DNA of 50,505 nucleotides, taken from assembly GCA_041665545.1 (NCBI GenBank), contig JBAYIQ010000006.1, forward strand, positions 1 to 50,505, in the 5' to 3' direction. Below the pieces are notes generated by a model. The model was given only the letters and a program-made list of their open reading frames with translations. It made no database searches and was not told the DNA's origin. Positions 199 to 49,522 of the stretch are shown piece by piece. The stretch comes from Patescibacteria group bacterium (GTDB lineage Bacteria > Patescibacteriota > Patescibacteriia > UBA1558 > GWA2-36-10). The stretch's first letter is position 1. Each line of letters opens with the position of its first letter. A program made the translations under genes and the position numbers.

Positions 199-1098
199 AT
201 GAAGAAAAGCGAACTTGTCCCGCCAAAGCCTTCGGCGAAGGCGGGTGAAGTGGCCAAAAAGCCCCAGTTTTTGGCTAATAGCCACCCTCTAGCCAGTCTA
301 GCGCAGGAGCTTATTATCAGGGGATTTTCCAAAAGGACCATCAAGAGCTACTTATCCCACAATCAGAGATTTTTGGATTTTGTGGCTAAGTCGGCTAGGG
401 AGGTTGATAGTCAGGATATCAAAAACTATTTGCTTTATTTGAAAAGTAAAAATTACACCAACACTTCACTCAATCAAGTCATTTCCGCCCTCAAATTTTA
501 TTATCAACAGATTCTGCATCGGAAGCTGTTTTTTAGTGTTGTTAGGCCAAAAAAAGAAAAGTTTTTACCAACTGTTTTGACTAAGATTGAGATTATAAAA
601 ATAATCAACTGCGCTCACAACTTAAAGCATAAACTTTTATTATCCTTACTTTATGGCTCGGGCTTGCGGGTATCAGAAGTAGTGAAAATAAAAATCAGTC
701 ATTTGGATTTGGTGAGCAAAAGTTTGTTAGTCAAAGACGCCAAGGGCCAAAAAGACCGCTATACATTATTGAGTGGCATTAGTATAAAATTATTAAATTT
801 ATATTTACCAAAATTACCCAACACTCAAAAATATTTATTTAGTGGTATGAGTGGTGAGTCCAGTTTAAGTCAGCGTAGTGCTCAGAAAATATTTGATCAT
901 GCTTTGGCAGAATCTGGCATCAAAAAAGAGGCCAGTTGTCATAGCTTGAGGCATAGTTTTGCTACCCACTTGCTAGAAAGCGGGGTAGATATTCGTTACA
1001 TCCAAAAATTATTGGGCCACCAAAACATCAAGACCACAGAAATATATACTCACGTGGCTAGAAATTTTTGTAGTAATATCAAAAGCCCACTAGATTAA
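199..1098 (+). CDS. tyrosine site-specific recombinase (XerC/XerD / phage-integrase family)
   Basis: 299-aa ORF. N-terminal SAM-like core-binding region (RTIKSYLSHNQRFLDF...ALKFYY). C-terminal catalytic box LLYGSGLRVSE ... HSLRHSFATHLLESGVDIRYIQKLLGH..TEIYTHV. Lacks the long insertion of true integron IntI. TTGACA-17-TAAAAA promoter-like motif at 140-168. Confidence 0.85.
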   Translation: MKKSELVPPKPSAKAGEVAKKPQFLANSHPLASLAQELIIRGFSKRTIKSYLSHNQRFLDFVAKSAREVDSQDIKNYLLYLKSKNYTNTSLNQVISALKFYYQQILHRKLFFSVVRPKKEKFLPTVLTKIEIIKIINCAHNLKHKLLLSLLYGSGLRVSEVVKIKISHLDLVSKSLLVKDAKGQKDRYTLLSGISIKLLNLYLPKLPNTQKYLFSGMSGESSLSQRSAQKIFDHALAESGIKKEASCHSLRHSFATHLLESGVDIRYIQKLLGHQNIKTTEIYTHVARNFCSNIKSPLD

Positions 1099-17665: not shown

Positions 17666-17668
17666 GCC

Positions 17669-17723
17669 GTCATCCCGCACTTGTTGCGGGATCTAGCAAG
17701 ATTCCTGCCTACGCAGGAATGAC
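17669..17723. repeat. GTCA...TGAC nested-palindrome element, copy R2 (55 bp)
   Basis: GTCA-TCCCGCActtgtTGCGGGA-TCTAGCAAGA-TTCCTGCctacGCAGGAA-TGAC, between queH and queA. Confidence 0.85.
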
Positions 17724-17729
17724 AAGCAT

Positions 17730-19009: not shown

Positions 19010-20356
19010 TTATAAAAATAAAATTATTAATAAATTAGTGATTACAAAAAATAAATGGGATTCAGTAAAATATCTAGATAAAAACCAGACCCCACCCATT
19101 AATAGTGTACCGTGTAAATAGACATTTTTTTGGGTATTGTTTTTATATTGTCTATATAAAAACAGCGGTAAAAAGGTAATAATAAATATTGTTTGCCAGA
19201 TAGCAAAATTATAAAATTGAGTTGGTTCAGAAATAATTTTCAGCTGTAGCAGTAAGCCAGCTAGTCCAAGCCCACGTGCTGGATAAAGATGGCCTAAGTA
19301 GTAAACTGTGTCGTGGTAGAAGGCCTTGGGATCCCATAAAATAAAAGGTAATAGTATAAGACAGACAAGAAACAGCATTACGAGTGGGTATTTAATAAAT
19401 TTTAATAAGGATTGTTTATTAATTGGTAAATACTTTTTAAATAAAATAAATGTTAAAAAGAAAGGCCAGAAAAAGATCATGTTTTGCTTAGTTAGGCCGG
19501 CTAAGCTGATCATAATGATTGAAAAAGTATAACGCTCTTTTTTTAAGAAAAAATACGCCCATAATAAAAAATACAGCGGGACTATATCACCAAAACCAAA
19601 AATTATGTCCGTGTATAAGAAAGTATTTAATGTAAAAAACAATAGTAATCCATTTTTCTTTTTTAAACTGGAGGGCAGTTTATATATTAGTAGACAAGCT
19701 AATAGGTATATTAGAAAATTGAGTATTCTATTATCATAAAAGTGAAAAATATTTATAAACACATATTTAAATGGTAGCGGTAAAATAAAGAAAAGCGGCA
19801 TATAAACATAGTTTTCCAAAGCCGGATTAAGCATTGTCCATTGTTTATGAACGCTGTCAAATTTTATCCAGTGATAGGTTTCATTATCCATAGCAGTACC
19901 ATAGTAATCTTCTTGGTATGGATTTTTTCCTTTTAGGATATAGTCAACCGCCGTTTCAGTCTGTAGAATACCATCCTGAGGGCTCCAAGCCGGGTTAGTA
20001 TTGTTGTATCGCCTATAGATATTTATTGATAAAATTAAAGCTTGGATTATTAAGAAACAAATTATTATCAATATTTTATTTTTATTATTATTTTTTTTAA
20101 TTGCCCAGTAATAAAAAATAGCTAATAAAGAAAAAATAAGTAATAAAACAAGTGATATTAACGTGAAACTACTGTTGTTAATTATATTTTCGGGGTTGAA
20201 GTCTAGGTTTGTAAAGAAAAGTTTTAAATAATCTAAGACACTTGAGAAAAACATAATCGATAAGATAAAAAAAAGAGTAAATTCCCAAGAACTATACTTG
20301 ATTAACATTAAGTAGGGTGAAAGGAGATCGTCAAAAGTTTTTTTAATTTTTTCCAT
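19010..20356 (-). CDS. polytopic GT-C-like membrane glycosyltransferase (DUF2029/GT87-like), paralogue 2
   Basis: 448 aa with at least 10 TM segments. First loop motif DGILQTE..YILKGKNPY. Collinear with the upstream paralogue. Confidence 0.5.
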   Translation of the reverse strand: MEKIKKTFDDLLSPYLMLIKYSSWEFTLFFILSIMFFSSVLDYLKLFFTNLDFNPENIINNSSFTLISLVLLLIFSLLAIFYYWAIKKNNNKNKILIIICFLIIQALILSINIYRRYNNTNPAWSPQDGILQTETAVDYILKGKNPYQEDYYGTAMDNETYHWIKFDSVHKQWTMLNPALENYVYMPLFFILPLPFKYVFINIFHFYDNRILNFLIYLLACLLIYKLPSSLKKKNGLLLFFTLNTFLYTDIIFGFGDIVPLYFLLWAYFFLKKERYTFSIIMISLAGLTKQNMIFFWPFFLTFILFKKYLPINKQSLLKFIKYPLVMLFLVCLILLPFILWDPKAFYHDTVYYLGHLYPARGLGLAGLLLQLKIISEPTQFYNFAIWQTIFIITFLPLFLYRQYKNNTQKNVYLHGTLLMGGVWFLSRYFTESHLFFVITNLLIILFL

Positions 20357-20364
20357 AGTTGACT

Positions 20365-21711
20365 TTATAAAAACATAGCTATTATCAAATTAGTAATAAC
20401 AACGCCAAGATGAGCCTCAGTAAAATTTCTAGAGAAAAACCACATCCCAGTCATTAATATGGTGCCATATAGATAGACGTGTTGAGGATTATTTTTTTTG
20501 AATTGTTTATATAATAGTAATGGTAAAAAAATTATAATAAATGTGACTTGCCATAAAACAAAACCATAATATTTTAGTGGGTCGCTAATAATATGTAAAT
20601 TCAATAATAATCCAGCTAACCCAACCCCACGAGCGGGGTATATATATTTAAGGTAGGTAACAGTGTCATAATAAAAAGCTCCCGGGTTCCATAAAATAAA
20701 AGGTAATAATATGACGCAACATAGAAGTAACATTATGAGTGGGTATTTAAGGTATTGTAGAAATGATCGCTGGTTAAGAGGCCAGAATTTTTTAAATAAA
20801 ATGTATGCTAAAAAGAAAGGCCAAAAAAATATTATATTTTGTTTACTTAAACCGGCAATGCTGATCATAATTATTGACTTGGAGTATTGCTCTTTTTTCA
20901 AATAATAGTAACTAGACAGTAAGAAGAGAAGGGGCAATATATCATTGAACCCGAAAACCATATGTAGATAAAAAAAATTATTCAAAGTGAAAAATATAAG
21001 GGCGCAATTTTTTTTCTTTTGGGTTTTTGGTATTTTGTAGATAAAAAAACAAGCCAGCAAGTAAATTATGAAATTGAAAATACGATTATCATAAAAACCA
21101 AAAATATTCGTGAACATTATTTTTAAAGGCAAGGGTAGAATAAAGCTAAGGGGCATATATACATAGCTTTCCAAGGCCGGGTTAATAAACCTCCATACTT
21201 TGCCGGCTCCACCCATTGTAATATAGTGGTCTCTAAAATTATCCATAGCAGTCTCGTGGTAGTTTTCTTCGTATGGATTTTTACCTTGCATTAACAAATT
21301 CATAGCTACTTCAGTTTGAGCAATGCCATCATGAGGGAGTGTATCTATGCGAGGATTGTTAAATCTTACATTAATTCTTGCAGCCACAGTCAAACCCTGT
21401 ATTAATAAAATGAAGATTATAACGACTATTTTAATTCTGTTCAGGTTTTTTTTAATTGCCCAAAAGTATATATATGACAAAGAATAAAAAATTACTATGC
21501 TTAAAAAAGTAAAAAAGAGCACCTGTGTGCTTAATTTGTCGGGATTCAAATAAATATTTTTTAATGTTATAAATTGGCAAGTCATATTGATTGTAACATC
21601 AAAAAAGATTGCCAGTAAAATGAAGAAAAAAACAAACTCCCAGGAGAGATATTTTATAATTATTAGGTATGGCGAAGCTAGTCCCCTAAGCGTTCTTTTT
21701 ATTTTTTCCAT
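20365..21711 (-). CDS. polytopic GT-C-like membrane glycosyltransferase, paralogue 1
   Basis: Also exactly 448 aa. Alignable end to end with 19010-20356 (MEKIK.T...SPYL.IIKY.SWEF ... ITNL). Loop motif DGIAQTE..LLMQGKNPY. Confidence 0.5.
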   Translation of the reverse strand: MEKIKRTLRGLASPYLIIIKYLSWEFVFFFILLAIFFDVTINMTCQFITLKNIYLNPDKLSTQVLFFTFLSIVIFYSLSYIYFWAIKKNLNRIKIVVIIFILLIQGLTVAARINVRFNNPRIDTLPHDGIAQTEVAMNLLMQGKNPYEENYHETAMDNFRDHYITMGGAGKVWRFINPALESYVYMPLSFILPLPLKIMFTNIFGFYDNRIFNFIIYLLACFFIYKIPKTQKKKNCALIFFTLNNFFYLHMVFGFNDILPLLFLLSSYYYLKKEQYSKSIIMISIAGLSKQNIIFFWPFFLAYILFKKFWPLNQRSFLQYLKYPLIMLLLCCVILLPFILWNPGAFYYDTVTYLKYIYPARGVGLAGLLLNLHIISDPLKYYGFVLWQVTFIIIFLPLLLYKQFKKNNPQHVYLYGTILMTGMWFFSRNFTEAHLGVVITNLIIAMFL

Positions 21712-25575: not shown

Positions 25576-25605
25576 AATAAGAAAAATTTGCTATAATATC
25601 GATGC

Positions 25606-25660
25606 GTCATCCCGCACTTGTTGCGGGATCTAGCTAGATTCCTGCCTGCGCAGGAATGAC
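25606..25660. repeat. GTCA...TGAC nested-palindrome element, copy R3 (55 bp)
   Basis: GTCA-TCCCGCActtgtTGCGGGA-TCTAGCTAGA-TTCCTGCctgcGCAGGAA-TGAC. Near-identical to R2 and R7. Confidence 0.85.
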
Positions 25661-25678
25661 AGTTCAAATAACACAATA

Positions 25679-27466: not shown

Positions 27467-27480
27467 AAGTTTGTTTATTC

Positions 27481-27571
27481 GTCATCCCGCACTTCCGCCA
27501 AAGGCGGACAGGTGTTGCGGGATCTAGTTTTAGATTATTACAAACTAGATTCCTGCCTACGCAGGAATGAC
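27481..27571. repeat. GTCA...TGAC nested-palindrome element, copy R4 (91 bp, expanded)
   Basis: Same ends and hairpins as R2/R3. It carries an extra hairpin CCGCCaaaGGCGG (27495-27507) inside hairpin 1 and an extended central stem TCTAGTTT..AAACTAGA. Confidence 0.85.
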
Positions 27572-27578
27572 AGCAAGT

Positions 27579-35298: not shown

Positions 35299-35718
35299 TT
35301 ATTTTAGATCCAAGAATTCTTCTTCATCATCAAAACCATAGTCATAAACAATCTCTTCACCCTTAGAGATTTTTTTGAGGGCTTTCATCATAAGATAGCG
35401 ATCATTTCTGGCCTGGGGGTAAAAAATGTCAGCATTAGGATTTTTACGGTCATGATTGTAGACTGATCCATAGCCCAGCATGATACAATCTTTGCGGTGG
35501 GTTTCTAAATAGAGGGGATAAAAAGTTAACAAATCTGATTCATCGTCCAAATATTTTACATCTTTTTTGGATAAATAAATAACCGGGAAAGTTTCAATGA
35601 TTTCTCCTTTTTTGATGTCATCAGTGGCTATTACTCCCAAGCCCTTACCCGGCGTCTCGACAATTTTGATTTTGGTCGGGGGTATGATTTTAAATTTTTT
35701 GGTCATTTGGTTGGTCAA
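35299..35718 (-). CDS. SET-domain protein (putative lysine methyltransferase)
   Basis: Motifs KGLGVIATDDIKKGEII, YNHD..PN and ISKGEEIVYDYGF. Confidence 0.8.
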   Translation of the reverse strand: MTNQMTKKFKIIPPTKIKIVETPGKGLGVIATDDIKKGEIIETFPVIYLSKKDVKYLDDESDLLTFYPLYLETHRKDCIMLGYGSVYNHDRKNPNADIFYPQARNDRYLMMKALKKISKGEEIVYDYGFDDEEEFLDLK

Positions 35719-36821: not shown

Positions 36822-37226
36822 CTATTGTTTGTTTTTTGGCTCTGGTTGTTCAGAATAGGTTGTATAGTCAACAGTCAATTCCTCACCTTTTTTAATATTT
36901 CTTAAAGCAAAAAAATTGTATTTTTTATCTAAACTAACGCTGGGTTTTTTGGAGTGGTTTAGATACCAGCCTGGTGCTAGTTGGTTAAAATTGGCTGGGC
37001 AGGCAAGCCGTCCATTTTTTAATAAGCAAAAATCGTCGTATAATTTTTTTATTTCCGGGCTTAATTTTTTGATCATTGATTCTTTGAGCCAGACAATTTT
37101 AACTTTTTCTCCCAAAAACATCCTAGTACCCTTTTTAATAGGACGAATAGCAAAAACGCCGACACCGTGAGTCTTGGATGATTTTAGTCTGGTATAAACC
37201 TGATGGTGTGGTAGTTGATTTTTCAT
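36822..37226 (-). CDS. SET-domain protein (second copy)
   Basis: Motifs HGVGVFAIRPIKKGTRMF, YLNHS..P and IKKGEELTVDY. Confidence 0.75.
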   Translation of the reverse strand: MKNQLPHHQVYTRLKSSKTHGVGVFAIRPIKKGTRMFLGEKVKIVWLKESMIKKLSPEIKKLYDDFCLLKNGRLACPANFNQLAPGWYLNHSKKPSVSLDKKYNFFALRNIKKGEELTVDYTTYSEQPEPKNKQ

Positions 37227-39545: not shown

Positions 39546-39644
39546 AAAAAATACTCCAACCCTGCTGTCATCCCGCACTTGTTGCGGGATCTCGCTAGAT
39601 TCCTGCCTTCGCAGGAATGACGCTATAAAGTCGGAGTATTTTTT
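39546..39644. repeat. GTCA...TGAC nested-palindrome element, copy R7, inside a terminator-like outer stem
   Basis: Core 39567-39621: GTCA-TCCCGCActtgtTGCGGGA-TCTCGCTAGA-TTCCTGCcttcGCAGGAA-TGAC. Outer stem AAAAAATACTCC (39546-39557) / GGAGTATTTTTT (39633-39644). Confidence 0.85.
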
Positions 39645-40609: not shown

Positions 40610-41566
40610 TTATTTTAAGCCAATTAGGCCTTTTATTTTTTCTAAGTTTTTATCGGCCTCACTTTGAGCTTTTTTGGCTCCTTCAGCTAATATTTTTTCC
40701 ACTTCTTTGGGGTGGTCTTGGAAGTAGTTTCTTTTGGCTTGAATTGGTTTCAAGAAATCTAAGACAACTTTAGTTAACTCTTCTTTTAATTCTACATTCA
40801 TTAGTTTTCCTTTTTGGAAAGCAGTGTTTAAAGATTTTGTTTTTTCAGGAGAGCCAAAATAAGAATATAGTTCCAAAAGATTTTTTATGCCTTGTTCGTC
40901 AGTGACAGCCTTTTTTATTTTTTTACTTATCGTATCTGGGTCATCGTCAATGGCAATGTAGCTGGCTTCGCCCAAGGACTTACTCATTTTTTTAGTAGAA
41001 TTATTGAGCGACATCAGGCGACGAGCTGGGGACAAGACTGGTTTTATTTCTGGAAAAAAATCACCATAGCGATTATTAAATTTTCTGGCAATTATTCTAG
41101 TCAATTCTAAGTGCTGAACTTGATCTTCGCCAACTGGTACATACTCAGCTAGGTAAAGCAAAATATCAGCGGCCTGCAAACTAGGATAAGTGAGTAAGCC
41201 GGCATTGATATTGTCAGGATGATGCAAGCTTTTATCTTTGAATTGCGTCATGCGCTCTAGTTCGGAGACTGGCACTAGGCAATTAAAAATCCAAGCTAAC
41301 TCGGCATGGCCAATGACTTCAGATTGTTTAAACAAAATTGATTTTTTGGGGTTGATACCCAAGGCCAGTAGGTCCACTGCCAGATCAAGGGTTTGTTTTT
41401 GCAAATCTTCTTTAGAAATTTTGACAGTCAGCGAGTGTAGGTCAGCAATAAAAAAAGAACAGCTATATTGATTTTGGAGTTCCACCCAATTTTTGACTGC
41501 CCCTAGATAGTTGCCCAAATGCAAATGCCCAGTGGGCTTGATACCCGAGATAAGTTTTTTTAGCAT
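40610..41566 (-). CDS. trpS: tryptophan--tRNA ligase
   Basis: HIGH-type motif GIKPTGHLHLGNYLGA, plus KMSKS and VPVGEDQ.QH. Confidence 0.96.
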   Translation of the reverse strand: MLKKLISGIKPTGHLHLGNYLGAVKNWVELQNQYSCSFFIADLHSLTVKISKEDLQKQTLDLAVDLLALGINPKKSILFKQSEVIGHAELAWIFNCLVPVSELERMTQFKDKSLHHPDNINAGLLTYPSLQAADILLYLAEYVPVGEDQVQHLELTRIIARKFNNRYGDFFPEIKPVLSPARRLMSLNNSTKKMSKSLGEASYIAIDDDPDTISKKIKKAVTDEQGIKNLLELYSYFGSPEKTKSLNTAFQKGKLMNVELKEELTKVVLDFLKPIQAKRNYFQDHPKEVEKILAEGAKKAQSEADKNLEKIKGLIGLK

Positions 41567-41587
41567 AAGATTTATGTTTATAGAGAT

Positions 41588-41616
41588 ATTATATTATGAA
41601 TCAATGGCCTGGTCAA
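41588..41616 (-). promoter_or_regulatory. trpS promoter TTGACC-17-TATAAT
   Basis: GGTCAA at 41611-41616 and ATTATA at 41588-41593 on the plus strand. The -35 lies inside direct-repeat copy 1. Confidence 0.6.
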
Positions 41617-41619
41617 TTT
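41599..41619. repeat. 21-bp direct repeat, copy 1 (AATCAATGGCCTGGTCAATTT)
   Basis: Identical to 41974-41994. The two copies bracket cassette S. Confidence 0.9.
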
Positions 41620-41635
41620 AACATAAAGTGCAAAG

Positions 41636-41664
41636 AAAAAAGGAGCCCCCTCAACGGAAGCTCC
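41636..41664 (-). terminator. intrinsic terminator of cassette S
   Basis: GGAGC (41642-41646) / GCTCC (41660-41664), with a T-run on the minus strand (plus-strand A-run 41636-41641). Confidence 0.65.
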
Positions 41665-41689
41665 GGGACTCATTGCGCAAGCCCAATGA

Positions 41690-41896
41690 TTAACTGTCAT
41701 CCATGCGGGTTGGAGGCATCTCCCGTCTCTTGGTGACAAAATCACCCTCAACGACCAATTCTTCAGCCCAATAATAGACTCTAACAGTTTTCTTTAGAAA
41801 GGGATGACAGATAGTGACGCCCTTGGAATCATCAACAGTAACCGTCAGCTCGGGAGAATCGACGATTAGGGTCATACTTGTTAATCTCATTTTCAT
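41690..41896 (-). CDS. cassette S small ORF (68 aa; 66 aa if the second ATG at 41890 is used), no recognised family
   Basis: AAGGAG is 1 nt from the first ATG and 7 nt from the second, so the second is the likelier start. Beta-strand-like sequence MTLIVDSPELTVTVDDSKGVTI. Confidence 0.5.
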   Translation of the reverse strand: MKMRLTSMTLIVDSPELTVTVDDSKGVTICHPFLKKTVRVYYWAEELVVEGDFVTKRREMPPTRMDDS

Positions 41897-41946
41897 GCTC
41901 CTTGATTTTTTGAGGGTTTGAGGGAAGGAACAATACTATATGACAC

Positions 41947-41975
41947 AACTTATCATTCCCGTTATTTTATGTCAA
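41947..41975 (-). promoter_or_regulatory. TTGACA-17-TAAGTT promoter of cassette S
   Basis: TGTCAA at 41970-41975 and AACTTA at 41947-41952 on the plus strand. Confidence 0.5.
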
Positions 41976-41994
41976 TCAATGGCCTGGTCAATTT
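41974..41994. repeat. 21-bp direct repeat, copy 2
   Basis: Identical to 41599-41619. Carries a second TTGACC. Confidence 0.9.
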
Positions 41995-42017
41995 TATAGT
42001 AGTTTGAAATAACTAAT

Positions 42018-42057
42018 AAAAAAACCGCCCCTCGACTACGCTCGGGGCGGTTTTTTT
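42018..42057. terminator. bidirectional intrinsic terminator AAAAAAACCGCCCC-N12-GGGGCGGTTTTTTT
   Basis: Read directly. Lies downstream of the RNase J stop. Confidence 0.8.
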
Positions 42058-42070
42058 GTTGCTTATTTTT

Positions 42071-43957
42071 TTACACCTCTATTACTACCGGTAAGATCAT
42101 AGGTCTACGTTCAGTTTTTTGGAAAATGTATTGACCTAAGTCATTGCGTAAAGTTTCTTTGATGTAGGTTTCGTTTATTTGTGAATTAGTCTTGTTGTGT
42201 TCGTTGACAATATTTTTTACTTTGGTGCGAATGGTTTCTACCAATTCTTTTTGCTCGCGCATGTAAATAAAGCCACGAGAAATAATATCAGGTGAGTGTA
42301 CCATTTTTCCATTTTTACCAGAGATAGTGACAATGACCACAATCATGCCATCCTCAGCCATCATTTGTCGGTCGCGCAAAACAATGTTGGACACATCGCC
42401 AACTCCCAAGCCATCGACAAACACATAGTCAGTCAGGACCTTTTCTTTGGTAAGCTGTCCTTGGCGATTGAGGTCAAACTCAATCACCTGACCATTGTCA
42501 GCCACAAATATATTTTCGGGCTTGATGCCAGCGCGTAAAGCCACTTTAGCGTGGATGCGTAAAAAGGAGTGGTTGCCATAGATAGGAATGTGGTATTTTG
42601 GTTTGACCATGTTTATCAGGTCCAAGAGGTCCTCTTGTTTGGCGTGGCCACCAGCGTGTACGTCCATCATTTTGTAATGAATGACGTCAGCCCCTAGGCG
42701 ATAGAGCTGGTCTTTGAGTCGCTGGACCGATCTTTCATTGCCTGGAATTACGGATGAGGAAAATACTACCGTATCTCCTTTTTCAATTTTTAAGCTGCGG
42801 TGTTCTTTATTGGCAATACGCATCAAAACAGCATTGTCTTCGCCTTGGGCACCAGTGCAGAGGATAATAACTTTGTTATCGGCATAATGGCGCATTTCTT
42901 TGATGTCAATGATGGTGCCTTTTTTGACAGTCATGTAGCCAAGCTGTTGGGCTAGTTCAACATTGCGCTTCATACTGAAACCTTCGATTACTATTTTTTT
43001 ACCTAGCTTTTCGGCTGACCAGATGATCTGTTGGATACGTCCTAAGAGTGAAGAGAAAGTACCGACAATAACGCGAGCTGGTGCTTGACTCAAAATGTCG
43101 TCAATATTGTGCTGAATGTCAAATTCAGCTAATTGATGTCCGGGCTCGGTAGCATTGGTACTGTCAGCCATCAGGGCCAAAATATTTTGTTTGCCTAAGT
43201 TTTTTATTTTTTCCATCTCGGCTGGCGCATCGCCGGAAGTTTTTGGGTCAAGCTTGAAGTCACCAGTGTGCACTACTTTGCCAGCCGGTGAATCCAAGAT
43301 AACGCCCAAGGATCCAGGAATATTGTGGGAGACACCAAAAAAAGTGGCTCGGAATTTTCCCAGTTGTAAGACGCTATCTTTTTGGATTGATTTTAATCTT
43401 AAAGGGCTGGTTTTGAAATCCTCCTGTCTTTTGGAAATGATTCCCAAAGTCAAAGGCGTGCCATAAATAACGGGGTTGCCTAAAATAGGAGCCAAGTGAG
43501 GCACAGCGCCAATATGATCATAGTGTCCGTGGGTAATGATTACACCGCGGATATTTTTTTCTTTGCCTTTCAAGTAAGCAGTGTTGGGGATGATATAGTC
43601 AATACCCGGCATGTCTTCTTCGGGCCATTGTAAGCCCATATCAATAATGACAATGTCATTTTCATATTCAAAGACAGTCATGTTGCGACCGACTTCTTCA
43701 CAGCCACCCAAAGGTATGATGCGTAGCTTGCCCTTGCTTACTAACAAATTTTTTGTTCGGTGAGCATGAGCTTTGGGGTCAGTAATTTTTTTAGCTTGGG
43801 GAGTTAGGCCTTGGCTAAAGTTTTTTTGTCGCTTGTTTTTGTTCAAGCGGGGACCGTGCTTAGGAGCGCGGTGCGGATTTGTTTTGGATCGGGATCCATG
43901 TTTGATAGAAACATTTGGCGTTAGCCTTCTATCAGTCATATCAGAATTTACATTCAT
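42071..43957 (-). CDS. rnj: ribonuclease J (MBL / beta-CASP) with a ~70-aa basic N-terminal extension
   Basis: Motifs ITHGHYDHIG, GDFK.D and HASGHA-like HAGGHAKQED. Confidence 0.92.
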   Translation of the reverse strand: MNVNSDMTDRRLTPNVSIKHGSRSKTNPHRAPKHGPRLNKNKRQKNFSQGLTPQAKKITDPKAHAHRTKNLLVSKGKLRIIPLGGCEEVGRNMTVFEYENDIVIIDMGLQWPEEDMPGIDYIIPNTAYLKGKEKNIRGVIITHGHYDHIGAVPHLAPILGNPVIYGTPLTLGIISKRQEDFKTSPLRLKSIQKDSVLQLGKFRATFFGVSHNIPGSLGVILDSPAGKVVHTGDFKLDPKTSGDAPAEMEKIKNLGKQNILALMADSTNATEPGHQLAEFDIQHNIDDILSQAPARVIVGTFSSLLGRIQQIIWSAEKLGKKIVIEGFSMKRNVELAQQLGYMTVKKGTIIDIKEMRHYADNKVIILCTGAQGEDNAVLMRIANKEHRSLKIEKGDTVVFSSSVIPGNERSVQRLKDQLYRLGADVIHYKMMDVHAGGHAKQEDLLDLINMVKPKYHIPIYGNHSFLRIHAKVALRAGIKPENIFVADNGQVIEFDLNRQGQLTKEKVLTDYVFVDGLGVGDVSNIVLRDRQMMAEDGMIVVIVTISGKNGKMVHSPDIISRGFIYMREQKELVETIRTKVKNIVNEHNKTNSQINETYIKETLRNDLGQYIFQKTERRPMILPVVIEV

Positions 43958-45876: not shown

Positions 45877-46095
45877 TTAGCTGATAAACAAGCTAGCTAA
45901 GGCAGAGGCCAAAAACAAGAAGCTCAAAACAATAGTTAAGCGGAAAATGAATTTTTCAGCTCCTCGTTTGGTGCGATAGATGGCGCTGTCGCCACCAAAA
46001 GTGGCACCCAGGCCCGATCCTTTTTGTTGTAACAAAATCGTTACTATTAACAAAATAGAAATAACGATTTGCAAGATGTTCAAGATATTTTTCAT
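45877..46095 (-). CDS. secG: preprotein translocase subunit SecG
   Basis: Trimmed to the internal ATG. MKNILNILQIVISILLIVTILLQQKGSGLGATFGG...RG.E..IFRLT. TTGACA-17-TAATAT promoter at 46114-46142. Confidence 0.85.
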   Translation of the reverse strand: MKNILNILQIVISILLIVTILLQQKGSGLGATFGGDSAIYRTKRGAEKFIFRLTIVLSFLFLASALASLFIS

Positions 46096-46113
46096 GTGGA
46101 GAATTAAATTAGC

Positions 46114-46142
46114 TTTTTGAATATTAGCATAAAGAAAGTTTA
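46114..46142 (-). promoter_or_regulatory. secG promoter TTGACA-17-TAATAT
   Basis: TGTCAA at 46137-46142 and ATATTA at 46114-46119 on the plus strand. Confidence 0.6.
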
Positions 46143-46272
46143 TTGTCAATGTCGGGGCATATTTTGATGCTAAATATTGACTTGGGATTATAGCTTGTAG
46201 TAGTATAGGGCGGTAAGTGTATAATGATGTTTTTAGGGGTGTTGGTGGGTGTTTCAGACCTGGAGGTGAAAC

Positions 46273-46431
46273 ATGAGCGTTGACAATCATGACGCCGAGT
46301 CCACTCCGACTTGGCAAATTCGAGACATCAGAGAGATTGTGTGTCCAGTGGATTCGCCCCATTATCTCCAATGTGACTGTGATTCCTGTCGGGCCATGTT
46401 GGAGATCGAGCTCCAGAAGCACCGCCGTTAA
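46273..46431 (+). CDS. island W micro-ORF 1 (52 aa, CPx9CxCxxC)
   Basis: GGAGGTG lies 4 nt before the ATG. MSVDNHDAESTPTWQIRDIREIVCPVDSPHYLQCDCDSCRAMLEIELQKHRR. Below the ORF-track cut-off. Confidence 0.35.
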   Translation: MSVDNHDAESTPTWQIRDIREIVCPVDSPHYLQCDCDSCRAMLEIELQKHRR

Positions 46432-46463
46432 CAATGAGGCATTCCCAGTCAAGGAGGCGATTC

Positions 46464-46595
46464 ATGAAGATCGGGTATTCTCACAGAAGAACCGCTGGTG
46501 TGTTCAGTCGGCACCGGCAGCGTCAACGCCGGCGTGCTCAGGCCGAGTACCGACGCATTCGTCAGCGCGGTCGCGTACGGCGAGGTCGTCGGTAA
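46464..46595 (+). CDS. island W micro-ORF 2 (43 aa, 17 Arg)
   Basis: AAGGAGG lies 6 nt before the ATG. MKIGYSHRRTAGVFSRHRQRQRRRAQAEYRRIRQRGRVRRGRR. Confidence 0.35.
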   Translation: MKIGYSHRRTAGVFSRHRQRQRRRAQAEYRRIRQRGRVRRGRR

Positions 46596-46635
46596 TTGGA
46601 TTCGCTCGTCGACATTTGATCTTTCCGCGTTTCTT

Positions 46636-46675
46636 AGGCCGTTCCCTGTTTCTGGGGGACGGCCTGATTTTTTAT
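46636..46675 (+). terminator. intrinsic terminator AGGCCGT-N16-ACGGCCT plus T-run
   Basis: Stem arms at 46636-46642 and 46659-46665, followed by GATTTTTTAT. Confidence 0.7.
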
Positions 46676-46708
46676 AAAAAAGAGGCGAACAGTTGGACTG
46701 CTCGCCTC
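46671..46708 (-). terminator. intrinsic terminator GAGGCGA-N13-TCGCCTC plus minus-strand T-run
   Basis: Stem arms at 46682-46688 and 46702-46708. Lies downstream of the 292-aa ORF stop. Confidence 0.65.
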
Positions 46709-46723
46709 GAGAATCTATGGGTG

Positions 46724-47602
46724 TCAGAAGTCTTCTTCTTCTCTGATGCCGATTTCGATCAGAGAATCTCTGCCTAGCTGATGGAGTGCCGGGTAAAGGG
46801 CTCGGTTCTGCTTCTCAGTGTCTAGCGGCTGGCCAAAGATATTGAGCCAGGCTCGCCGCAAGAATGAGTCTGTGAACCGGCCGTATTTGCTATTGCCAAG
46901 GGTACGGCGATAGAAGCTGACACGGTCGGCGAGGATCAAGATCACCTGCTGAAGCGCCTCACTGCGCACTTGATGTGTTTGACGCTCATCCTCGTGCTGA
47001 TTGCGCTCTTGCTGATAGCGAACCCTGTTAGCATGTTCAGCCAGCAAGAGACCAGTCAGACGATTGTACACTTCGCCTTGCGGTCGATCCAGTAGCTCGA
47101 AGAGCTGGGGCAGTTCAGCGAACTTGAAACGCAGGCGATTGTTGGAATCATCGGATGCTTGCAAACCAGAAGCACTGAGGTCATGATCTAACACCTGGAA
47201 ATAGCTCCAGTCAAAGTATCCGACAAGCTCATGACCTCTGATGAAAATGCGACTGCCCCAATGACCGCCAATAGACACCTCGCAATAGGTGTCTACCAGT
47301 GGTTCGTTGTTGATGCCACGTGGCAAAAGTCGGTGAGCATGAGGTTCACCCTTGTCCATGAACCAATATTCGCGATGCCGCAAAAATATTGGTTCACCAA
47401 TAGCGATGAGTAGCCATAGACCGAGTAAGATAAGGACAATTTTGTAGTAAATGTTTGGGGTTGAAGAAATTAACGCACTGATAATCGTGAAGAGGACGAT
47501 AAACGTCGGGATCGCGATCTTGTGACCAACGCGATGAGCTCCACTACGAGCTTTTTGGCAGAGCTCACATTCGGGTTCGCACTTAACATTGGGTTGACTC
47601 AT
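46724..47602 (-). CDS. island W membrane protein (292 aa), no recognised family
   Basis: TAGGAGG lies 5 nt before the ATG. N-terminal CEPECELC, two TM helices, then a ~200-aa soluble region with a charged coiled-coil-like stretch. Confidence 0.6.
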   Translation of the reverse strand: MSQPNVKCEPECELCQKARSGAHRVGHKIAIPTFIVLFTIISALISSTPNIYYKIVLILLGLWLLIAIGEPIFLRHREYWFMDKGEPHAHRLLPRGINNEPLVDTYCEVSIGGHWGSRIFIRGHELVGYFDWSYFQVLDHDLSASGLQASDDSNNRLRFKFAELPQLFELLDRPQGEVYNRLTGLLLAEHANRVRYQQERNQHEDERQTHQVRSEALQQVILILADRVSFYRRTLGNSKYGRFTDSFLRRAWLNIFGQPLDTEKQNRALYPALHQLGRDSLIEIGIREEEDF

Positions 47603-47742
47603 CTTGACCTCCTATCGATAGGCTCATTTGTCCTACCGAGGGAAGCGCCGCTAATTGGCTATTCAGCTTGACATTATTATCAGCTGACATTCCAATCAGG
47701 GCTAGTGACACCATAGATTTTGAAAGGGCATTTAATGGGATA

Positions 47743-47771
47743 AACTTATTATCATTTATATTTTTTGTCAA
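47743..47771 (-). promoter_or_regulatory. TTGACA-17-TAAGTT promoter with a ~140-nt leader for the 292-aa ORF
   Basis: TGTCAA at 47766-47771 and AACTTA at 47743-47748 on the plus strand. The palindrome CCTATCGATAGG (47611-47622) overlaps the SD. Confidence 0.5.
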
Positions 47772-47802
47772 ATAAAAAAGAGTCACTGGTGTTTGTAATA
47801 TC

Positions 47803-47926
47803 GTCATTCTGGAGCGCAGTCGCGTCTGACGCGGCGAAGCGATAGAATCTATAAGCTAGTGTATTGTAGTAGATTCTATCGGTCGTTACCTGCCTGCCGG
47901 CAGGCAGGCGCTCCCTCCAGAATGAC
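47803..47926. repeat. GTCA...TGAC nested-palindrome element, copy R8 (124 bp, divergent)
   Basis: GTCATTCTGGAG ... CGCGtctgaCGCG ... ATAGAATCT-N20-AGATTCTAT ... CCTGCCTGCCGGCAGGCAGG ... CTCC(c)TCCAGAATGAC. Confidence 0.8.
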
Positions 47927-47944
47927 AGGGTAGTTGGCATTTGT

Positions 47945-49522
47945 TTATTTATAAGATTTTCTATGTTGCTGGCGATAATTTTTGATAGCAAACTTGTGCG
48001 CTTGATTACGCATGTATTGAACAAAAAGAGATAAAGCACTGGTACGCAGTAGGCGAATTGAAGTTTTTCTGCTAGGCAAAAATATTTCTTCTTCTTTTTT
48101 AGCCAAGGATATTGTTTTATTTTTCCAAGTTTTTGGTAATATTTTTGACACTACACTAAGTTGTGGTTTGCCACCATCCAAAATAATTAAATCGGGCTCG
48201 GGCCATTCCTTGTGTCTAAGCCGGCGACTCAAAACTTCTTGCATCATCCAAGCGTCATTGGGACCAGCCACATATTTTATTTTGAACCAGCGGTATTGGT
48301 CAGCGGCAATTTTGCCATCTTGAAAAACAACCATAGCGCCGACGGCCAGTGTGCCCTGAATATTGGAAATGTCATAAATCTCAATTCGACGCGGTAAGAC
48401 TTTTAATTTGAGTAGTGACTGCAAAGCACTAAGCTGTTGCCATTTAGTTTGGTCAATATTTCTTTCCAAATGATCTTGAGCATTTTTTTGTACTAACTCC
48501 AGTAGTTTTTTATTATGACCTTGTTTTGGTACTAGTATTTTTATTTTTTTAGACAAAATAGTTTGCGTTTTATTTATTTTCTCGGGCAAGAGCAGACTAG
48601 CTGGCTGGTCCATTTTATCGCTATAAAATTGGTTGATAAAATTTTCAATAATTTCAGCATCAGATAATTTAAGTTCATTTTGAATAATAAAATTAAATTT
48701 GTCACCCAAAATTCCCCGGCGTATTTGCATGGCGGTCAAAGCCACAGTTTGTCCGAAGCTGGTCAGATTAATAATATCTTGGTTGATGTTTTGGTTGGAA
48801 ATTACTTTTTGTTTGGCTTGTAGTTTTTGTAGGGATTGCAGTTGGTCGCGTTTTATTTTGGCTAGTTCAAAGTTTTTTTCGGCACTGAATTTTTTTAATT
48901 CTCGCAACAAACTAGCTTCCAATTCGTAGGTCTCGCCACGGATTATTTTTTTTGCTTGATTTATTAGGTCACTATATTCAGCAACAGAAATTAATTTTTC
49001 ACAAGGACCCAAACAACGATGCATATGATATTCCAAACAAACTTTGCCTTTGGGTAATCGTGATAAATCACGGCCACAGGTGCGTAAAGGCAGGATGCGA
49101 TGCAAAAGTCGGACAGTAGTGCGTGCCGCAAAAGTAGAGGTGTATGGTCCAAAATGCTGGCCCTTTCTTTTTTGCCGACCATGAATGACAACAATACGCG
49201 GAAAGATTTCATTAGTAATGACTATGTAGCCCCAATTTTTGTCATCTTTCAAAACAATATTATATTTGGGCTGGTGTTTTTTTATTTGGCTGGCTTCTAG
49301 TAGTAAGCTTTCGGTTTCATTATCTACCAGTGTGTAGCGAATGTGGGCGATTTCTTGGAGCATCAGTAATTTTTGTTCAGTCAATTCACTGCTTTTTTGC
49401 CAATAGGAAACCAAGCGGCTTTTGAGATTTTTGGCTTTGCCGATATAGATGATTTGTCCCTGTTTATTTAGGAAAAAATAGACTCCGGGACTGGTGGGTA
49501 TTTTTTTGAAATCAGGTGTCAT
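47945..49522 (-). CDS. uvrC: excinuclease ABC subunit C, apparently lacking the C-terminal (HhH)2 domain
   Basis: Trimmed to the ATG at 49522. GIY-YIG motif PGVYFFLNKQGQIIYIGKAKNLKSRL, a UVR-like helix and an RNase H-like endonuclease domain. Ends right after MRNQAHKFAIKNYRQQHRK. Confidence 0.88.
   Translation of the reverse strand: MTPDFKKIPTSPGVYFFLNKQGQIIYIGKAKNLKSRLVSYWQKSSELTEQKLLMLQEIAHIRYTLVDNETESLLLEASQIKKHQPKYNIVLKDDKNWGYIVITNEIFPRIVVIHGRQKRKGQHFGPYTSTFAARTTVRLLHRILPLRTCGRDLSRLPKGKVCLEYHMHRCLGPCEKLISVAEYSDLINQAKKIIRGETYELEASLLRELKKFSAEKNFELAKIKRDQLQSLQKLQAKQKVISNQNINQDIINLTSFGQTVALTAMQIRRGILGDKFNFIIQNELKLSDAEIIENFINQFYSDKMDQPASLLLPEKINKTQTILSKKIKILVPKQGHNKKLLELVQKNAQDHLERNIDQTKWQQLSALQSLLKLKVLPRRIEIYDISNIQGTLAVGAMVVFQDGKIAADQYRWFKIKYVAGPNDAWMMQEVLSRRLRHKEWPEPDLIILDGGKPQLSVVSKILPKTWKNKTISLAKKEEEIFLPSRKTSIRLLRTSALSLFVQYMRNQAHKFAIKNYRQQHRKSYK

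Follow-up and report, generated by a model that had tools for sequence, protein, structure and literature searches.

We analysed a 50,505-nt stretch of DNA from an uncultivated, ultra-small Patescibacteria group bacterium (GTDB lineage UBA1558; GWA2-36-10; contig JBAYIQ010000006.1 of assembly GCA_041665545.1), hereafter the window, in which a small orphan gene, ORF66, lies between rnj (ribonuclease J) and trpS (tryptophan-tRNA ligase) and is bracketed by a perfect 21-bp direct repeat. We find that 354 bp of this intergenic region, together with one copy of the repeat, is an insertion relative to the ancestral state of the site. We consider it probable, though well short of certain, that the repeat is the trpS promoter, duplicated when a 354-bp single-gene unit entered, and that the resulting allele arose once, replaced a state with a DUF378 gene and passed between lineages by recombination. 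An original prediction, made from the letters of the window, had proposed an insertion scar that duplicates the −35 region of trpS while keeping the trpS promoter; that the insert-bearing allele lacks the ancestral DUF378 gene, and that it has moved between lineages, goes beyond that prediction.

A relative retains the empty site

In the window, the 21-mer AATCAATGGCCTGGTCAATTT is found at exactly two places, 41599-41619 (copy 1, next to trpS) and 41974-41994 (copy 2, next to rnj), as had been predicted. No additional match was found in the window at up to three mismatches and none in 100 shuffled controls, so that the 21-mer is not a dispersed motif. In a scan of the window for perfect direct repeats of at least 15 nt spaced by up to 4 kb, this pair was the only one around an intergenic unit. 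We located every part of the complete minus-strand unit described between the copies: a −10 box, the motif AAGGAG, an open reading frame (ORF) of 66 or 68 codons and an intrinsic terminator, whose stem of 9 bp (6 GC pairs; 41664-41642) is followed by a T-run. An assembly artefact was ruled out, given that the identical structure is found on at least six independent contigs from two populations.

With TrpS as the query, we retrieved the locus from relatives whose TrpS identity ranges from 94% to 67%; among named organisms, Candidatus Komeilibacteria come closest to the window by TrpS. The most informative relative, L088 (ENA ERZ781236; 89% TrpS identity), has the gene order SBP-rnj-X-trpS-murI that is also seen in the window and a single promoter copy, ttcaaactactata followed by AAATTGACCAGGCCATTGATT and cataatataat. 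The left side of this copy equals the flank of copy 2 and the right side equals the flank of copy 1, base for base, with nothing between. L088 thus preserves the empty site down to the nucleotide, and compared with this ancestral state the window has gained 354 bp (41620-41973) and one 21-mer by insertion. In L085, L086 and L095-98 the site likewise has one copy of the 21-mer, identical or slightly altered, and the insert is missing from at least 12 related lineages. Only one relative, L001 (GCA_964540095.1), shares the duplicated arrangement; its two repeat copies match each other at 18 of 21 positions, compared to 21 of 21 in the window. The predicted scar is borne out by the relatives that have one 21-mer and no insert; it is not the case that all relatives share the duplication with diverged repeats.

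Compositional foreignness of the insert, by comparison, was rejected as a signal. With 43.5% GC, compared to 38.9% in the window and 37-42% in the flanking DNA, the insert is only a weak outlier inside the range of the neighbouring genes, and the GC block of the earlier description is not a strong one.

The repeat duplicates the predicted trpS promoter

A promoter scan places both repeat copies in predicted promoters, in line with the original prediction. Copy 1 supplies the TTGACC −35 box of a TTGACC-17-TATAAT promoter that reads into trpS (11/12), and copy 2 puts an identical TTGACC upstream of the cassette, in a TTGACC-16-TAAAAT promoter that reads into the small ORF (10/12). A further promoter that had been assigned to the ORF, TTGACA-17-TAAGTT, is present as a sequence in the insert. 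However, its −10 box matches at just 3/6 positions, and for this reason the copy-2 promoter is the better candidate for ORF66. The context AAATTGACCA upstream of trpS is kept in seven lineages, down to 76% TrpS identity, and this conservation of the −35 context while the spacer varies supports copy 1 as the real trpS promoter. Past the 21-mer, copy 2 continues as GA plus CATAAAATAA and copy 1 as CATAATATAA, which agree at 9/10 positions with a 2-nt indel (empirical p ~0.006); the original duplication probably covered the whole trpS promoter, from −35 to −10, or ~31-33 bp. The cassette terminator is predicted to insulate trpS from the upstream promoter. A T-box or riboswitch leader of trpS, or other structured RNA, was considered and rejected, as the top matches of a permissive search of 41500-42100 fell over the rnj terminator.

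Based on these predictions, we propose the following course of events. The incoming unit would have consisted of ORF66, with its −10 box and Shine-Dalgarno sequence, and of a strong intrinsic terminator. From the upstream promoter copy ORF66 would take its −35 box, and probably its whole promoter, the cassette terminator would end the ORF66 transcript, and the downstream copy would restore an intact TTGACC-17-TATAAT for the essential trpS. An insertion without promoter duplication would leave trpS cut off behind a terminator, so that only a duplicating event would survive; selection that permits only insertions regenerating the trpS promoter would be a sufficient reason for the clean scar. The duplicated target promoter would leave the newcomer and trpS with one promoter each, and the locus offers a nucleotide-resolved example of how an orphan mini-gene may enter a small, streamlined Patescibacteria genome with its essential neighbour not disabled. 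As to how the duplication was first made, fill-in of the overhangs of a staggered break may have enclosed a captured fragment, or a Campbell-type crossover inside the promoter homology may have brought in a small circle with a promoter-like segment. We favour these two routes by default, because either yields the observed structure without a special enzyme.

A different route to the same repeats would be site-specific integration, in which the 21-mers are attL/attR cores left by a 375-bp circle whose integration a tyrosine recombinase of the Xer or integron type would have catalysed in trans. The perfect 21/21 direct repeats at both ends are what such an event would leave, as in the Campbell-type integration of integrative elements, including integrative mobile elements exploiting Xer (IMEX) at dif, where recombination would likewise restore the empty site; and an Xer-family recombinase is encoded in the window (199-1098). 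The sequences TTATGTTAAAT and GTTAAAT at the insert/copy-1 junction resemble the XerD arm of E. coli dif and the integron core GTTRRRY, which we treat as a lead only. The original prediction had raised the question of whether the recombinase family found in the window uses such cores; we found no link between the two. The gene lies 40 kb away and its product scores as a housekeeping enzyme (NF040815, XerA/Xer, 230 bits versus a cut-off of 220) and falls below the integron-integrase cut-off (203.5 versus 265). Unlike in integrative elements, neither the insert nor the DNA next to it encodes an integrase, the insertion lies in a sigma-70-type promoter instead of a tRNA gene or dif (no tRNA or tmRNA gene lies in the window and neither junction holds a dif-like 28-mer), and the insert is far smaller than any known one. 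Integron gene cassettes, for their part, are normally promoterless and expressed from Pc, whereas this cassette has its own predicted promoter (10/12); it has no attC-like 3′ element, its 3′ region being a terminator, and the only tyrosine recombinase found is the distant Xer-type one. Finally, the cassette is known from one site only, and the centre of the putative core differs at 3 of 21 positions in L001, the same variant occurring at the single-copy site of L086. Altogether we regard site-specific integration as very improbable and retain break capture or crossover as the default origin of the duplication.

The rnj-trpS site is a variable islet

Among the relatives, the content of the rnj-trpS site varies between at least four states, which makes it a variable islet. 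The genes rnj and trpS flank the site in the window and in L001, L088, L006, L090, L092, L094, L102, L103 and L005. A DUF378 gene is present in nine lineages (L006, L085, L086, L088, L090, L092, L099, L102 and L103), where it lies between the upstream terminator and the single trpS promoter, reads away from trpS and encodes a 66-80-aa membrane protein. Neither ORF66 nor DUF378 is found in L094 (75% TrpS identity), L005 (67%) and L095-98, which we count as three lineages. The window and L001 both lack DUF378 at the site and have the same junction, TTTTTTTAT-TAGTTAT-TTCAAAC, including the TAGTTAT filler; no DUF378 gene is found elsewhere in the window. DUF378 occurs in every deeper branch as far as 76% TrpS identity. 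We take it to be the ancestral occupant of the site, and the ORF66 allele to be a DUF378-loss allele as well. Derivation of the insert from the DUF378 segment by inversion or decay was rejected, as the two have only 10-nt chance words in common.

The islet differs in further ways among the relatives. Within the sub-lineage that trpS places nearest to the window, rnj does not adjoin the trpS islet; in L085 (1-220), L086 (1-270) and L095 (1-700) the upstream neighbour is instead a divergent gene for a secreted protein with a bacterial TSP3 repeat. In L095-98 the terminator and DUF378 have both been lost at a short CAAA microhomology.

The ORF66 allele has a single origin and a non-vertical distribution

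ORF66 is rare. Among 5.8 billion proteins it forms just two clusters, the first with the window, Logan SRR18595301 (L004) and a 169-kb contig and the second, P0002, with L001 and two Logan assemblies (L002 and L003). These independent assemblies, window/L004 and L001-L003, are the only carriers found. In a neighbour-joining tree of trpS, L001 groups with L088 (bootstrap 200/200) and the window groups with L085, L086 and L095 (200/200), with the window and L001 as sisters in 0/200 replicates. The insert is 93.5% identical between the window and L001, with 100% identity over the 70 nt between the stop codon and copy 1. Synonymous divergence (dS) between the window and L001 is 0.49 in rnj, 0.62 in sbp, 0.80 in trpS and 1.24 in murI, each with a ratio of nonsynonymous divergence (dN) to dS of 0.04-0.07. 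In ORF66, on the other hand, dS is 0.081 (dN 0.072; dN/dS 0.89), 6-15 times below these four flanking genes, with ~4 synonymous differences seen and ~16 or more expected at the lowest flanking rate. The shared DUF378-less junction with its shared filler argues for one origin, and the non-sister position of the carriers in the trpS tree together with an ORF66 dS far below the flanks argues for lateral passage. These comparisons indicate that the derived allele (DUF378 absent, ORF66 present) arose once and subsequently passed between two species-level lineages.

An old, vertically inherited cassette would have to account for the same data differently. The ancestor of the clade would have had the cassette, several precise losses would have occurred through the 21-bp repeats, DUF378 would have been kept or regained, and the repeats would be held by selection on two promoters. 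Recombination between the repeats does restore exactly the L088 empty site, promoter function could keep both copies constant, and short intergenic regions are generally ~90% conserved. However, such a history needs repeated precise loss as well as the reappearance of DUF378 in at least two subclades. The presence of DUF378 in all the deeper branches, the low dS of ORF66 (0.08 versus 0.49-1.24 in the four flanking genes) and the complete absence of a sister grouping of the carriers speak against vertical descent. We consider it the least probable of the histories weighed here and prefer a single origin followed by lateral passage.

The most likely vehicle of this transfer would be homologous recombination through the conserved flanks. 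The derived allele would have spread between two species-level lineages of a Komeilibacteria-like Patescibacteria clade by recombination in the flanks, with DNA uptake as the probable first step. In another group of Patescibacteria, the Saccharibacteria, both natural competence and the insertion of cassettes by recombination have been demonstrated (PMC10633639). To follow the tract along the locus, we scored L001 at informative sites, defined as positions where the window and L088 differ, against both. Over the final ~350 nt of rnj, L001 agrees with the window (32 sites versus 16), also at a 15-nt indel just after the rnj stop codon, and this agreement continues until ~35 nt beyond copy 1. The terminator stem and the first 600 nt of trpS, by contrast, are those of L088. 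Such a pattern would fit, though not cleanly, the transfer of the entire allele (ORF66 present, DUF378 absent) on a short recombination tract. The flanking low-divergence tract is short and patchy, and the three differences in the trpS-proximal repeat of L001, which are clustered (CAGGCC to CACACT) and recur in the single-copy allele of L086, again point to patchy exchange.

Several observations weigh against the history that we propose. The low-divergence tract does not clearly extend into rnj, where dS in the last windows remains at 0.35-0.41, and in its terminator stem L001 resembles L088; any recombination end-points would therefore lie very near the cassette. The low dS of ORF66 is based on only ~4 synonymous changes, and the 5′ non-coding part of the cassette is 89% identical, compared to 85-91% for other short intergenic regions. 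DUF378 also has a low dS, 0.19-0.27 between two subclades (trpS 1.0), so that the islet is a mosaic in which the cassette is not uniquely young. Promoter activity, terminator activity and ORF66 expression are predictions only. The founding duplication event was not observed, and no donor for the 354 bp turned up in any collection searched: a paralogue, donor or second insert copy was found neither in the window, nor in 0.8 Mb of related loci, nor among the 5.8 billion proteins or 1.84 billion representatives. The insert was also not found in IMG/VR, in phage and plasmid records or in JGI metagenome contigs, the last a collection that is incomplete for this clade, as the scan missed two JGI contigs (L095 and L096) known to hold the pattern.

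Divergence is uneven across the locus as a whole. Between L088 and L085, trpS has a dS of 1.04 and the adjacent DUF378 gene 0.19, and between the window and L001 murI reaches 1.24 compared to 0.49 for rnj. This heterogeneity indicates pervasive recombination among these Patescibacteria lineages.

The cassette could also have arrived twice. A non-autonomous transposable cassette, of the type of a miniature inverted-repeat transposable element or a mobile insertion cassette (MIC), would have short terminal inverted repeats and an unusually long target-site duplication of 19-21 bp, would be moved by a transposase encoded elsewhere, and would have inserted twice independently at the same promoter. 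MICs, such as MIC231 of Bacillus cereus, are transposase-less passenger units with short inverted repeats and a target duplication; they share the inverted repeats of resident insertion sequences (ISs) and occur in several copies. Consistent with a unit of this type, a 10-nt inverted repeat (9/10) lies exactly across both insert/repeat junctions, the motif TTATGTYAA occurs four times in the window with two of these at the junctions, and the low-divergence tract is almost limited to the cassette. The inverted repeat is, however, of doubtful significance: it was noted post hoc, its empirical p is 0.004 overall and 0.023 for AT-rich ends, and one of its arms is better explained as part of the duplicated −10 region. 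In further contrast to MICs, the unit is single-copy in the sequences searched, which for second copies comprise the window, the 0.8 Mb of related loci and the protein, viral, metagenome, phage and plasmid collections. No transposase turned up, although the ORFs of the window were not systematically screened for one. IS1634 and IS1549 are known to be flanked by long direct repeats of variable length, 8-514 bp (PMC2266710), and the direct target duplication here, 21 bp and possibly 31-33 bp, is likewise unusually long; unlike those elements, the 354-bp unit has one unrelated ORF, no transposase seen, no family-type ends and no other copies found. The identical DUF378-less junction in the window and L001 speaks for one event, not two, and we think a transposable cassette unlikely.

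A more specific version would be a promoter-specific minimal mobile cassette, an orphan gene with 10-nt inverted ends that duplicates ~21-33 bp of a sigma-70-type promoter, is mobilised in trans and entered the two lineages independently. Such an element would capture a promoter for itself while regenerating that of its host, and we hold it to be distinctly unlikely. One insertion, passed on by recombination, remains our preferred explanation.

The small gene ORF66

The product of ORF66 is MRLTSMTLIVDSPELTVTVDDSKGVTICHPFLKKTVRVYYWAEELVVEGDFVTKRREMPPTRMDDS. Nothing in Pfam, PHROG, PADLOC, NCBIfam or PDB sequences matches it, and, apart from P0002, the only hits of an exhaustive phmmer search of the 1.84 billion representatives were two long repeat proteins. 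The latter (P0123 and P0124, with eight fn3 and 22 MBG repeats) were rejected as remote homologues, because their E-values sum over 8-22 near-identical repeats and a single repeat gives a pairwise E of 0.001. An AlphaFold2 model of the product is all-beta with a mean predicted local distance difference test (pLDDT) of 56, too poor for a fold search.

In both alleles of ORF66, AAGGAG-7-ATG is conserved and the frame is open, and together with the dedicated predicted promoter and terminator this argues for translation of ORF66, which may be very young, fast-evolving or else a passenger. A reading that is compatible with the insertion history, and that we regard as possible though not likely, is that ORF66 is not a functional protein gene at all; the frame would then be young or fortuitous, and the unit a passenger, neutral or regulatory, such as a proto-gene or a module of promoter and terminator. 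The dN/dS of 0.89 gives no sign of selection on the protein, the 14 substitutions between the window and L001 spread 5/4/5 over the codon positions, and both the low pLDDT and the lack of a homologue in the 5.8 billion proteins or the 1.84 billion representatives point the same way. On the other side, two sequences give little power to measure selection, the strong AAGGAG 7 nt before the ATG is conserved in both lineages along with the open frame, and no structured RNA was found instead: no Rfam family reaches threshold in the whole window and the fold of the cassette transcript is unremarkable (z −1.4).

Relation to minimal mobile elements

Variable cassettes between conserved flanking genes that are exchanged by recombination are an established concept (PMC3787668). 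The closest parallel is with the minimal mobile elements (MMEs) of Neisseria (Saunders & Snyder 2002), here taken as their definition is cited in PMC3787668 and PMC1797815. Like MMEs in that definition, the locus is a short region between conserved genes (rnj and trpS) that holds different whole-gene cassettes in close relatives (DUF378, ORF66 or nothing); its 354-bp cassette has no mobility gene or IS, its one ORF having no family match; and the distribution of the cassette is incongruent with the phylogeny of the flanking genes, as expected for recombination after DNA uptake. Unlike MMEs, for which direct repeats are not part of the cited definition, the cassette is bracketed by a 21-bp promoter duplication, the scar of the original non-homologous insertion. 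The host also differs, in that it belongs to a Patescibacteria lineage known only from metagenomes, for which we infer transformation and recombination. As genome variation the locus is of a familiar type, the gain and loss of a small accessory gene, with the twist of a promoter duplication and no new mechanism. An intergenic islet that swaps alternative small genes across species-level lineages provides indirect evidence for recombination-driven gene flux in this group.

Features of the locus and other observations in the window

The features of the locus are collected in Table 1.

Table 1. Features of the rnj-trpS region in the window.
Feature	Position	Strand	Description
trpS (tryptophan-tRNA ligase)	40610-41566	−	Pfam PF00579, E 2e-69; right-hand conserved flank
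Repeat copy 1 (trpS-proximal)	41599-41619	−	Exact 21-mer; TTGACC at 41616-41611 is the predicted −35 box of the trpS promoter
Inverted-repeat arm	41618-41627		10 nt, 9/10; straddles the insert/repeat junction; weak, may be chance
354-bp insert	41620-41973	−	−10 box, 5′ untranslated region with AAGGAG, ORF, 3′ hairpins and terminator; defined by empty-site comparison
Cassette intrinsic terminator	41632-41664	−	GGAGCTTCC-GTTGA-GGGGGCTCC followed by TTTTTTCTTT; terminator scan and RNA fold
Small ORF (ORF66)	41690-41890	−	66 codons plus stop; alternative ATG at 41896 gives 68 aa; stop at 41690
Shine-Dalgarno AAGGAG of ORF66	41903-41898	−	7 nt before the ATG
Partner inverted-repeat arm	41966-41975		TTTATGTCAA
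Repeat copy 2 (rnj-proximal)	41974-41994	−	Exact 21-mer; TTGACC at 41991-41986 is the predicted −35 box for the small ORF; left flank as in the L088 single-copy site
DUF378-less junction	42003-42017	−	TTTTTTTAT-TAGTTAT-TTCAAAC; relatives hold a ~310-bp DUF378 gene segment here
Bidirectional rnj terminator	42015-42060	both	Fold −26 kcal/mol, z −5.8
rnj (ribonuclease J)	42071-43957	−	Pfam RNase_J domains; left-hand conserved flank; synteny in relatives

Several other features of the window came to light. A 57-nt dispersed intergenic repeat is found at 17668-17724, 25605-25661 and 39566-39622, with a split copy at 27477-27573, the copies being 91-100% identical. It consists of two GC-rich hairpins, CGTCATCCCGCACTTGTTGCGGGATCTAGC.AGATTCCTGCCT.CGCAGGAATGACA, with a fold of −26.2 kcal/mol (z −4.35) and no Rfam match, and looks like a family of the repetitive extragenic palindromic (REP) or terminator type. 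A segment of ~1.7 kb between uvrC and secG (46238-47956) has no counterpart in the syntenic region of L001 (5146-5646). It includes the most GC-rich block of the window (to 0.59) and contains a 292-aa ORF (46724-47602) without a Pfam match. The longest ORF through the adjacent secG, at 45877-46452 with a TTG start, has ~120 codons upstream of the SecG domain.

The window also differs from L001 in its SET-domain genes, of which it has two (35299-35718 and 36822-37226), compared to one plus a GNAT acetyltransferase gene in L001. Two local duplications were seen in addition. At 2807-2842, near the 3′ end of the ORF at 1502-2872, there is a perfect 18-nt tandem duplication (AATATCAAAGAATCAAAA twice), which would be an in-frame repeat of six codons. 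At 19010-20356 and 20365-21711 lie tandem 448-aa paralogues with ~72-84% DNA identity over parts, of which the first, the one tested, encodes a product with a weak match to the GT87 glycosyltransferases, below the Pfam cut-off.

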